Below are positions 268-5,667 of a DNA stretch of 5,667 nucleotides, one piece after another. Under the pieces are notes generated by a model. The model saw only the letters and a program-made list of their open reading frames with translations. It made no database searches and was not told the origin of the DNA. The translations under genes were made by a program, and so were the position numbers. How positions within the stretch are numbered: the stretch's first letter is position 1; every line of letters begins with the position of its first letter. Source of the stretch: a virus (Duplodnaviria > Heunggongvirae > Uroviricota > Caudoviricetes); the IMG/VR virus record IMGVR_UViG_2671180637_000030. One strand, given 5' to 3'.

Positions 268-786
268 ATGGCAATGCCGCGCAAACTCAAGTTAATGAAC
301 GTCTTTCTGAACGGCTACAGCTATCAGGGCGTCGCGAAGTCCGTCACGCTACCAAAACTGACCCGTAAGCTCGAAAACTATCGCGGTGCGGGGATGAACG
401 GCAGCGCACCGGTAGACCTCGGCCTTGATGACGATGCGCTGTCAATGGAGTGGTCGCTCGGTGGCTTCCCGGATTCGGTTATCTGGGAGCTTTACGCCGC
501 AACCGGTGTGGATGCCGTACCGATTCGTTTTGCAGGCTCTTACCAGCGCGACGATACCGGCGAAACGGTGGCCGTCGAGGTGGTCATGCGTGGACGTCAG
601 AAAGAAATCGACACCGGCGAGGGCAAACAGGGAGAAGACACCGAGTCGAAAATCTCCGTGGTCTGCACCTATTTCCGGCTGACGATGGACGGTAAGGAGC
701 TGGTCGAAATCGACACCATTAACATGATTGAGAAGGTGAACGGCGTCGACCGGCTGGAGCAACACCGCCGCAATATCGGCCTGTGA
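268..786 (+). CDS. FII: Major tail tube protein
   Basis: 172-aa ORF, the same length as P2 gpFII, with the sequence as I recall it. AAGGAG at 254-259 lies 8 nt upstream of ATG 268. It follows the sheath gene as in contractile-tail phages. Confidence 0.92.
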   Translation: MAMPRKLKLMNVFLNGYSYQGVAKSVTLPKLTRKLENYRGAGMNGSAPVDLGLDDDALSMEWSLGGFPDSVIWELYAATGVDAVPIRFAGSYQRDDTGETVAVEVVMRGRQKEIDTGEGKQGEDTESKISVVCTYFRLTMDGKELVEIDTINMIEKVNGVDRLEQHRRNIGL

Positions 787-842: not shown

Positions 843-1118
843 ATGAACAAAGAAAATGTCATTACCCTGGAAAATCCGGTCAAACGTGGTGAGCAGGTCA
901 TCGAACAGGTCACGCTGATGAAACCCAGTGCCGGGACACTGCGCGGTGTCAGTCTGGCTGCGGTCGCGAACTCCGAAGTCGATGCACTGATTAAGGTGCT
1001 GCCGCGCATGACGGCACCGATGCTGACCGAGCAGGAAGTCGCCGCGCTGGAACTGCCTGACCTTGTGGCGCTGGCCGGTAAGGTGGTCGGTTTTTTGTCG
1101 CCGAACTCGGTGCAGTGA
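843..1118 (+). CDS. E: Tail assembly chaperone gpE (zero-frame product)
   Basis: 91-aa ORF, the same length as P2 gpE, between the tube and tape measure genes (position analogous to lambda G). It contains a T6 slippery run near its 3' end. Confidence 0.88.
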   Translation: MNKENVITLENPVKRGEQVIEQVTLMKPSAGTLRGVSLAAVANSEVDALIKVLPRMTAPMLTEQEVAALELPDLVALAGKVVGFLSPNSVQ

Positions 1119-1270
1119 CGTTCCCGAAAAATCTCTCGGTCGATGACCTGATGGCGGATGTGGCAGTGATATTTCACTGGCCGCCATCAGAACTGTATCC
1201 CATGAGTCTGACCGAACTCATCACATGGCGCGAAAAGGCGCTCCGGCGAATCGGAAACACGAATGAGTAA
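843..1270 (+). CDS. E+E': Tail assembly chaperone E+E' made by programmed -1 ribosomal frameshift (142 aa predicted)
   Basis: After a -1 slip at 1091-1097 the -1 frame stays open for 57 codons (VAELGAVTFPKNLSVDDLMADVAVIFHWPPSELYPMSLTELITWREKALRRIGNTNE) to TAA at 1268-1270. That gives 84 + 1 + 57 = 142 aa, matching the known P2 E+E' product, and the extension ends overlapping the T start codon. Confidence 0.8.
1091..1097 (+). other. Slippery heptamer T TTT TTG (X XXY YYZ) for the -1 frameshift
   Basis: Zero-frame codons are GGT TTT TTG at 1089-1097. The heptamer T-TTT-TTG allows tRNA re-pairing in the -1 frame, and the downstream -1 frame is open to 1270. Confidence 0.8.
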
Positions 1271-3710
1271 CAATGTAAAATTACAGGTATTGCTCAGGGC
1301 TGTTGACCAGGCATCCCGCCCGTTTAAATCCATCCGCACAGCGAGTAAGTCGCTGTCGGGGGATATCCGGGAAACACAAAAATCACTGCGCGAGCTGAAC
1401 GGTCACGCATCCCGTATTGAGGGATTCCGCAAGACCAGTGCACAGCTTGCCGTGACTGGTCATGCACTTGAAAAGGCACGGCAGGAAGCCGAAGCCCTTG
1501 CCACACAGTTTAAAAACACCGAACGTCCGACCCGTGCTCAGGCGAAAGTGCTGGAATCCGCAAAGCGTGCGGCGGAGGACTTACAGGCGAAATATAACCG
1601 CCTGACGGATTCTGTTAAACGCCAGCAGCGGGAACTGGCCGCTGTGGGAATTAATACCCGCAATCTTGCACATGATGAGCAGGGGCTGAAAAACCGTATC
1701 AGTGAAACCACCGCACAGCTTAACCGGCAGCGTGATGCGCTGGCGCGTGTCAGTGCACAACAGGCAAAACTTAACGCAGTAAAACAGCGTTATCAGGCCG
1801 GAAAAGAACTGGCAGGAAATATGGCCTCAGTGGGCGCTGCCGGTGTGGGGATTGCTGCTGCGGGAACGATGGCCGGTGTTAAGCTGCTGATGCCCGGTTA
1901 TGAGTTTGCGCAGAAAAACTCAGAATTGCAGGCCGTGCTCGGTGTGGCAAAAGACTCCGCCGAAATGGCTGCACTACGCAAGCAGGCGCGCCAGCTCGGC
2001 GACAACACCGCCGCCTCGGCGGATGATGCGGCCGGTGCGCAGATTATCATTGCGAAAGCGGGTGGAGATGCTGCGGCTATTCAGGCGGCAACGCCGGTCA
2101 CGCTAAATATGGCACTGGCGAATCAGCGGTCGATGGAAGAAAACGCTCAACTGTTGCTGGGGACTAAGGCATCCTTTCAACTGTCAAATGATGATGTCAG
2201 TCATGTGGGCGACGTGTTGTCGGCAACGATGAATAAGTCGGCGGCTGATTTTCAGGGACTCAGTGATGCACTGACTTATCTCGGCCCGGTTGCGAAGACG
2301 GCAGGTGTAAGTCTTGAGCAGGCAGCAGCCATGACAGGTGTGCTGCATGACAATAACATCAGGGGGTCAATGGCGGGTACGGGTAGCAGTGCCGTTGTTA
2401 CCCGATTACAGGCTCCGACAGGGAAAGCATGGGATGCACTCAAAGAGCTTGGCGTTAAAACCTCGGACAAAAAGGGAAATATGCGCCCGTTGTTCACCAT
2501 TCTGAAAGAGATTCAGGCCAGCTTTGATAAACACAAGCTGGGAACGTCTCAGAAGGGGGAATACCTTAAAACCATTTTTGGTGAGGAAGCACTGAAATCA
2601 GCGAACGTTTTACTGGCAGCGGCAGCAAGCGGAAAACTGGATACGCTGACCGCCACGCTGAAAGCCTCGGACGGTAAAACGGAAGAGCTGGTTAAAATCA
2701 TGCAGGATAACCTCGGCGGTGACTTTAAGGAGTTTCAGTCCGCTTATGAGGCGGTGGGGACAGACCTGTTTGACCAGCAGGAAGGCGCACTGCGTAAGCT
2801 CACGCAGACGGCCACAAAGTATGTGTTAAAACTCGATGTCTGGATCCAGAAAAACAAATCACTGGCGTCAACCATCGGCATCATTGCCGGTGGCGCACTG
2901 GCGCTGACTGGCATCATCGGTGCCATTGGTCTTGTCGCCTGGCCGGTTATCACCGGCATCAATGCCATCATCGCGGCAGCAGGCGCAATGGGGGCAATCT
3001 TCACGACGGTTGGCAGTGCCGTTATGACGGCCATCGGGGCGATTAGCTGGCCGGTTGTGGCCGTGGTGGCCGCTATTGTCGCCGGGGCGTTGCTTATCCG
3101 TAAATACTGGGAGCCTGTCAGCGCATTCTTTGGCGGTGTGGTGGAAGGGCTGAAAGCGGCATTTGCGCCGGTGGGAGAACTGTTCACGCCACTGAAGCCG
3201 GTGTTTGACTGGCTGGGTGAAAAGTTACAGGCCGCGTGGCAGTGGTTTAAAAACCTGATTGCCCCGGTTAAAGCCACCCAGGACACCCTGAACCGTTGCC
3301 GTGACACGGGCGTCATGTTCGGGCAGGCACTGGCTGACGCGCTGATGCTGCCGCTTAATGCGTTCAACAAACTGCGCAGCGGTATTGACTGGGTACTGGA
3401 AAAACTCGGTGTTATCAACAAAGAGTCAGACACACTTGACCAGACCGCCGCAAGGACTCATGCCGCCACGTATGGCACCGGCGGTTATATTCCGGCGACC
3501 AGCTCTTATGCAGGCTATCAGGCTTATCAGCCGGTCACGGCACCAGCTGGTCGCTCTTATGTGGACCAGAGTAAAAACGAATATCACATCAACCTGACGG
3601 GCGGTACTGCGCTGGGAACACAGCTTGACCGCCAGTTACAGGATGCGCTCGAAAAATATGAGCGGGATAAACGTGCGCGCGCCCGTGCCAGCATGATGCA
3701 TGACGGTTAA
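1263..3710 (+). CDS. T: Tail tape measure protein
   Basis: 815-aa ORF, the same length as P2 gpT. The N-terminal third is rich in Q/R/A/E/K heptad-like sequence (predicted coiled coil), there is a central Gly/Ala-rich hydrophobic block, and it sits directly downstream of the chaperone frameshift pair. Its ATG (1263) is embedded in ATGAGTAA, overlapping the E' stop. Confidence 0.93.
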   Translation: MSNNVKLQVLLRAVDQASRPFKSIRTASKSLSGDIRETQKSLRELNGHASRIEGFRKTSAQLAVTGHALEKARQEAEALATQFKNTERPTRAQAKVLESAKRAAEDLQAKYNRLTDSVKRQQRELAAVGINTRNLAHDEQGLKNRISETTAQLNRQRDALARVSAQQAKLNAVKQRYQAGKELAGNMASVGAAGVGIAAAGTMAGVKLLMPGYEFAQKNSELQAVLGVAKDSAEMAALRKQARQLGDNTAASADDAAGAQIIIAKAGGDAAAIQAATPVTLNMALANQRSMEENAQLLLGTKASFQLSNDDVSHVGDVLSATMNKSAADFQGLSDALTYLGPVAKTAGVSLEQAAAMTGVLHDNNIRGSMAGTGSSAVVTRLQAPTGKAWDALKELGVKTSDKKGNMRPLFTILKEIQASFDKHKLGTSQKGEYLKTIFGEEALKSANVLLAAAASGKLDTLTATLKASDGKTEELVKIMQDNLGGDFKEFQSAYEAVGTDLFDQQEGALRKLTQTATKYVLKLDVWIQKNKSLASTIGIIAGGALALTGIIGAIGLVAWPVITGINAIIAAAGAMGAIFTTVGSAVMTAIGAISWPVVAVVAAIVAGALLIRKYWEPVSAFFGGVVEGLKAAFAPVGELFTPLKPVFDWLGEKLQAAWQWFKNLIAPVKATQDTLNRCRDTGVMFGQALADALMLPLNAFNKLRSGIDWVLEKLGVINKESDTLDQTAARTHAATYGTGGYIPATSSYAGYQAYQPVTAPAGRSYVDQSKNEYHINLTGGTALGTQLDRQLQDALEKYERDKRARARASMMHDG

Positions 3711-5448: not shown

Positions 5449-5667
5449 ATGTTTCATTGTCCTTTATGCCAGCATGCCGCACATGCGCGTACAAGTCGCT
5501 ATATCACTGACACGACAAAAGAGCGTTATCACCAGTGCCAGAACGTGAATTGCAGCGCCACGTTCATCACTTATGAGTCGGTGCAGCGATACATCGTGAA
5601 GCCGGGAGAAGTCCACGCCGTAAGGCCGCACCCGTTGCCGTCAGGGCAGCAAATTATGTGGATGTAA
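5449..5667 (+). CDS. ogr: Ogr late-gene transcription activator (Ogr/Delta zinc-finger family)
   Basis: 72-aa product MFHCPLCQHAAHARTSRYITDTTKERYHQCQNVNCSATFITYESVQRYIVKPGEVHAVRPHPLPSGQQIMWM with a C-X2-C...C-X4-C cysteine quartet (C4, C7, C30, C35), matching P2 Ogr as I recall it. It has its own ribosome-binding site and ends at TAA 5665-5667. The ORF-track start at 5386 is judged an over-extension. Confidence 0.9.
   Translation: MFHCPLCQHAAHARTSRYITDTTKERYHQCQNVNCSATFITYESVQRYIVKPGEVHAVRPHPLPSGQQIMWM

Follow-up and report, generated by a model that had tools for sequence, protein, structure and literature searches.

The 5,667-nucleotide window (the whole stretch of DNA analysed here) almost certainly carries the P2-type E/E+E' programmed -1 frameshift, which is predicted to give a 91-aa gpE and a 142-aa gpE+E'. 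The feature is already known, being one more instance of a programmed frameshift that was characterised in 2002, and it holds nothing that is new biologically. For phage P2, a passage in PMC3091744 describes a -1 shift at TTTTTTG that results in the 91-aa E and the 142-aa E+E'. The point of scientific interest is the contrast between an intrinsically weak heptamer with no known stimulator and the useful frequency at which it is reported to shift.

The window is the tail region of a P2-type (Peduovirus) phage or prophage. It starts within the tail sheath gene FI (1-255), and its last base is the end of the stop codon of ogr, the late-gene activator (5449-5667). The whole gene order, FI(end)-FII-E-E'-T-U-D-ogr, matches that of the E. 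coli prophage that is its best full-length match among complete E. coli genomes. That match reaches only 97.5% identity, and we therefore regard the window as a P2-like variant and not as P2 itself. Matching P2-like prophages are common, being found in 2150 of 5426 complete E. coli genomes, and an exact-sequence look-up located the 91-aa E sequence on at least 1000 public contigs. The gene pair of interest is flanked by the major tail (tube) gene on one side and by the tape measure gene on the other (Table 1). Comparison with the P2 record shows that gene E starts and stops where P2 gpE does, and its 91-aa product ends in ...KVVGFLSPNSVQ.

Table 1. Position of the frameshift cassette and its neighbours in the window.
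Feature	Position	Strand	Evidence
Gene FII, major tail tube protein (172 aa), upstream neighbour	268..786	+	TIGR01611 tail_tube, E = 1e-49; gpFII in the P2 record
Gene E, 91-aa zero-frame product, tail assembly chaperone short form	843..1118	+	ATG 843, TGA 1116-1118; PF10109 Phage_TAC_7, E = 2e-12
SD-like stretch TAAGGTGGT, candidate stimulator	1079..1087	+	3 nt 5' of the heptamer; predicted anti-SD duplex
Slippery heptamer T_TTT_TTG (zero-frame codons TTT, TTG)	1091..1097	+	Same in P2
E', predicted -1 frame extension, 57 codons and TAA	1097..1270	+	PF06528 Phage_P2_GpE; conserved alignment
Gene T, tape measure protein (815 aa)	1263..3710	+	TIGR01760 tape_meas_TP901, E = 1e-99

In the frame of gene E the slip site reads GG(T TTT TTG), with F84 at 1092-1094 and L85 at 1095-1097, which is the correct phase for an X_XXY_YYZ heptamer. 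The first-pass annotation, made from the letters alone, had proposed a T-TTT-TTG heptamer seven codons before the gpE stop, and this is what we find: the heptamer is in phase with gene E, in which the TTG forms codon 85 and the stop follows as codon 92. It had also described a -1 frame open for 57 codons up to the start of the tape measure gene. From 1097 the -1 frame indeed holds 57 sense codons (VAELGAV...GNTNE; VAELGAVTFPKNLSVDDLMADVAVIFHWPPSELYPMSLTELITWREKALRRIGNTNE) before a TAA at 1268-1270 that overlaps the ATG at 1263, and the join 843..1097 + 1097..1270 gives the 142 aa (85 + 57) expected for the conceptual fusion. On its 5' side the -1 frame opens, at 1082, just 9 nt before the heptamer because a TAA at 1079-1081 closes it. 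Both frames can consequently be joined by a -1 shift only in a zone of 12 codons, 1082-1118, and the heptamer lies inside it. By itself the heptamer is ordinary: TTTTTTG occurs as a single copy in the window, where 1.4 would be expected (both strands, dinucleotide-preserving shuffles). A 57-codon open frame is by itself unremarkable as well. What lifts the arrangement above chance is the combination of the phase, the position in the only joinable zone, a Pfam match and conservation in 16 of 16 relatives.

The correspondence with P2 is close at every level. Positions 700-1400 share about 98% identity with phage P2 and with many Peduovirus genomes, positions 800-1300 are 99% identical to P2 (AF063097), and from the heptamer to the end of E the two sequences agree base for base. 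The P2 GenBank record annotates gpFII, gpE, gpE+E' and gpT. It enters gpE+E' as a joined CDS described as "-1 frameshift; essential tail protein", with an amino terminus common with gpE, and its misc_feature "site of -1 translational frameshift" maps to window position 1098. The P2 reference fusion, identified by exact-sequence look-up (AAD03292.1 / NP_046780.1 / UniProt O64312, "Tail assembly protein E'"), is formed by the same join that we used. Aligning the window fusion to P2 gpE+E', a check put forward in the first-pass annotation, gave 140 identical residues out of 142, the only differences being D10E in E and S137I in E'; the few remaining nucleotide changes are synonymous. Genes, place in the FETUD operon, heptamer, flanks, product lengths (91 and 142 aa) and the ATGAGTAA overlap with gene T are all as in P2.

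Protein families point the same way. The -1 extension matches the Pfam family PF06528 (Phage_P2_GpE) at E ~1e-20 (2.5e-21), and PHROG tail families match the fusion, with the match to phrog_1756 crossing the junction (residues 82-142). No NCBIfam model matched when the fusion was used as the query, and a sequence search for solved structures of relatives found none. The earlier identification of this region as the P2 E/E+E' chaperone frameshift is supported by the 99% DNA identity, the P2 annotation at the homologous position, the near-identical fusion and the Pfam families.

The arrangement recurs in related phages. A tblastn search of the fusion against 50,697 phage records matched 419 of them, 400 with at least 80% of the query covered, and among the 60 matches listed those with full coverage came in two pieces each, as two reading frames predict. 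We selected for comparison 16 diverged Peduoviridae loci with 37-77% protein identity, from phages of Klebsiella, Salmonella, Yersinia, Burkholderia, Ralstonia, Pseudomonas, Enterobacter, Aeromonas, Mannheimia and Escherichia and from one uncultured phage; together with the window they make up the 17 loci referred to below. E' lies in the -1 frame relative to E in all 16 (17 of 17 with the window), and each of the 16 has an in-phase X_XXY_YYZ heptamer within the overlap. The heptamer is exactly T_TTT_TTG in 12 of them; the other four have T_TTT_TTC, A_AAT_TTT, C_CCT_TTC and G_GGA_AAG, one each. Salmonella phage SEN5 has a -1 frame whose open stretch begins right at the heptamer.

Substitution patterns indicate that the extension evolves as protein in the -1 frame. 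In the E'-only part, substitutions relative to three enterobacterial relatives fall on the three -1 codon positions as 4/4/12, 8/7/12 and 13/10/30, an excess at the third position that resembles the pattern in gene E. The protein alignment has a conserved E' core, (V/I)(D/E)D..AD(I/V)A..F.W.P......E...WR..A..R. An extension without conservation in related phages had been named beforehand as evidence against the frameshift; instead, all the diverged relatives that we examined conserve E' in the -1 frame.

Tandem -1 tRNA slippage is the best-supported mechanism. Most ribosomes translating gene E would stop at the TGA at 1116-1118 and release the 91-aa gpE. A minority would slip back by one nucleotide on T_TTT_TTG, where the P-site tRNA-Phe (on UUU) and the A-site tRNA-Leu (on UUG) move in tandem, and would then read on from GTC (GUC) at 1097 in the -1 frame to the TAA at 1268-1270. 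The slipped product would be the 142-aa gpE+E' with the junction ...GFL-VAELGAV..., and E' is predicted to be translated only as the C-terminal part of this fusion. The first-pass annotation had written the junction as ...KVVGFF-VAELGAV. Its second F differs from the P2 reference protein, which reads ...KVVGFL-VAELGAV, and a Leu is also what tandem slippage predicts at the junction. If the slip occurred one codon earlier, or if the transcript had seven U residues, the junction would be GFF-VAEL. A protein of this kind occurs once in NCBI, from an E. coli genome (QTN08932.1): an in-frame 142-aa fusion with a GFF-VAEL junction, the product expected of a run of seven T. Either the homopolymer was misread in sequencing, or this is a natural mutant restricted to the long form.

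For P2, the abstract of Christie et al. 2002 (J Bacteriol 184:6522) reportedly gives a shift frequency of about 10%, with the fusion at roughly a tenth of gpE. A passage in PMC5009743 puts its efficiency 2- to 3-fold above that of lambda. In E. coli reporters, U_UUU_UUG shifted at 0.118% without a stimulator, at 0.247% with the IS911 stimulator and at 0.765% with the IS3 stimulator (PMC4066793 Table S3), that is, 0.12% alone and 0.77% in the strong pseudoknot case. With reporter values of only 0.12-0.77%, the efficiency reported for P2 is not explained by the motif alone. T_TTT_TTG is nevertheless the preferred site of the family, despite its near-background shifting in reporters.

No classical stimulator was found downstream. 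The 80 nt 3' of the heptamer fold no better than shuffled sequences (z = -0.58), and RNAalifold run on the 17 loci predicts zero conserved pairs, so a conserved hairpin or pseudoknot 5-9 nt after the heptamer was rejected. These folding results agree with a passage in PMC3091744 that describes P2 as having no downstream stimulatory structure. A longer fold of 141 nt gave z = -2.4. Its strong hairpin, CUGAUGGCGG...CCGCCAUCAG, is at 1147-1190, inside E', and has a 5' arm that encodes the conserved DLMAD motif. Lying about 50 nt 3' of the slip site, it is too far away to act as a classical stimulator. The T-run was also considered as part of an intrinsic terminator and rejected: two terminator-like matches occur at 1070-1092 where 1.3 are expected, and they are absent from the minimum-energy fold.

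Upstream of the heptamer there is a candidate. For the stretch 3-17 nt 5' of the heptamer, we compared the energy of the anti-SD duplex with that at other positions in the gene. TAAGGTGGT has a predicted anti-SD duplex of -8.9 kcal/mol, the strongest of the in-frame positions sampled in gene E, and at 13 of the 17 loci the complementarity to the anti-SD ranks within the top 4%, or higher, among positions in the gene. The SD-like element is present with TTTTTTG in 12 of 13 loci and is absent from three of the four loci whose shift site is another heptamer. In a control that kept the amino acids fixed and drew synonymous codons from local usage, P was 0.12 for the window TAAGGTGGT and 0.05-0.43 per locus across those 13 loci, with a combined P of 0.015 when relatedness is ignored. 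The SD-like signal is largely accounted for by the encoded amino acids, with a weak excess beyond them, and the stretch is kept as a candidate stimulator. We think it rather unlikely that most of the frameshifting is due to an unrecognised element of the context; the best candidate for such an element would be the SD-like stretch 3-10 nt upstream. A nascent-peptide effect or polymerase slippage may possibly contribute to the shift.

The E. coli dnaX gene, in which a -1 shift on A_AAA_AAG is assisted by an SD-like element 10 nt upstream and by a downstream hairpin, offers a partial parallel. Both systems make a -1 tandem slip on a heptamer and both have an SD-like stretch upstream of it, but the spacing is 3-7 nt here, against 10 nt in dnaX, and the dnaX hairpin has no conserved counterpart in the 17 P2-type loci. 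The shifted product is the longer one here and the shorter one in dnaX.

If the frame change took place mainly in the RNA, the polymerase would slip on the run of six T and add a U, and the resulting U7 messenger would encode an in-frame GFF-VAEL fusion. The slip site is indeed a homopolymer of six T, the 0.12-0.77% measured for U_UUU_UUG (PMC4066793) makes it a very poor ribosomal shifter, neither folding nor RNAalifold on the 17 loci found a downstream stimulator, and QTN08932.1 demonstrates that with seven T the fusion is encoded intact. We still consider this explanation very unlikely. Efficient polymerase slippage usually needs runs of about 8-9 residues or more, and six is short of that. 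The relatives with the non-homopolymeric heptamers G_GGA_AAG, A_AAT_TTT and C_CCT_TTC keep the two-frame design, which fits tandem tRNA slippage and not polymerase slippage. Both the P2 record and the literature (PMC3091744, PMC5009743) call the event translational. Polymerase slippage could possibly make a minor contribution in P2-like phages, next to the ribosomal shift that we favour.

Slightly more improbable still is that E' is made as a separate small protein from a start codon of its own, with no frameshift at all, either from ATG 1151 (39 aa) or, by termination and reinitiation, from GTG 1115 (51 aa). An ORF of 51 aa does begin with GTG at 1115 and run to 1270, its start overlapping the E stop as GTGA. 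On the 97.5%-identical E. coli prophage, RefSeq/PGAP annotates a 39-aa "GpE family phage tail protein" corresponding to 1151-1270, and stand-alone E' entries are plentiful in databases, with a cluster of 195 sequences of which one member is found on at least 1000 contigs. However, these start codons are not conserved: among the relatives the distance from the heptamer to the first -1 frame start varies between +24 and +144 nt, with some of these starts inside the conserved motif, and three close relatives (L002, L003 and L004) lack the GTGA overlap. ATG 1151 is situated within the conserved VDDLMADIA motif, so a protein started there would lose conserved residues. What the relatives do share is the in-phase heptamer and the -1 relation of the two frames, and in the P2 record the amino terminus of E+E' is that of gpE.

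It is mainly for annotation that the predicted fusion matters. The first-pass annotation had expected a standard ORF caller to report only the 91-aa E, which is not quite what happens: NCBI's pipeline also calls the 39-aa ORF at 1151-1270. We judge this separate E' call to be wrong. Automatic pipelines still split the predicted 142-aa product, recorded as essential in P2, into a 91-aa "tail assembly protein" and a 39-aa "GpE family" protein.

A coincidental heptamer and open -1 frame, without function, would agree with the unexceptional TTTTTTG count and with 57-codon open frames not being rare, but this reading is excluded by the conservation data. The -1 ORF has a Pfam match (E ~1e-20) and shows the substitution pattern of a coding sequence in that frame, and the whole arrangement persists across Peduoviridae genera that infect Escherichia, Klebsiella, Yersinia, Burkholderia, Ralstonia, Pseudomonas, Aeromonas and Mannheimia.

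From their family membership and by analogy with lambda G/GT (Levin et al. 1993; Xu, Hendrix and Duda 2004, 2013, 2014), we infer that E and E+E' are a tail assembly chaperone pair. In lambda, the domain shared by G and GT binds the tape measure protein and the extension binds the tube protein (PMC5009743). By this analogy, the N-terminal domain common to E and E+E' would be a chaperone that covers tape measure protein T, the less abundant E' domain would bring in the tube protein FII, and neither gpE nor gpE+E' would be expected in the finished virion. The first-pass annotation had likened the region to the chaperone frameshifts found upstream of tape measure genes, and the flanking genes bear this out, being a tube gene (TIGR01611) and a tape measure gene (TIGR01760). 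The order in lambda is the same: tube gene, two overlapping chaperone ORFs, tape measure gene. Both systems have a -1 shift at an X_XXY_YYZ heptamer and a short abundant and a rare long product. In contrast, no sequence similarity was detected between lambda G/T and E/E+E', which belong here to PF10109 and PF06528. The lambda heptamer is G_GGA_AAG instead of T_TTT_TTG, although the Mannheimia phage relative also uses G_GGA_AAG, and the tail is contractile here and non-contractile in lambda.

With gene T starting at ATG 1263, the E' stop and the T start overlap by 8 nt (ATGAGTAA). The diverged relatives likewise have an E' stop that overlaps or directly adjoins the start of T (ATGAGTAA, ATGAGTGA, ATGA or TAAATG). 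The overlap suggests that translation of T may be coupled to the rare frameshifted ribosomes, in which case the amounts of T and E+E' would be tied together.

FII and E are separated by 56 nt, and within this gap, at 794-814, lies a near-perfect inverted repeat, CCGGTCAGCC-t-GGCTGACCGG, without a T-tail. P2 has a G in place of the A at 810 and keeps the pairing as a G-U wobble, and in the Mannheimia relative a rho-independent terminator is annotated at the corresponding place. The repeat may act as a transcription attenuator that lowers the expression of E-T-U-D relative to that of the sheath and tube genes.
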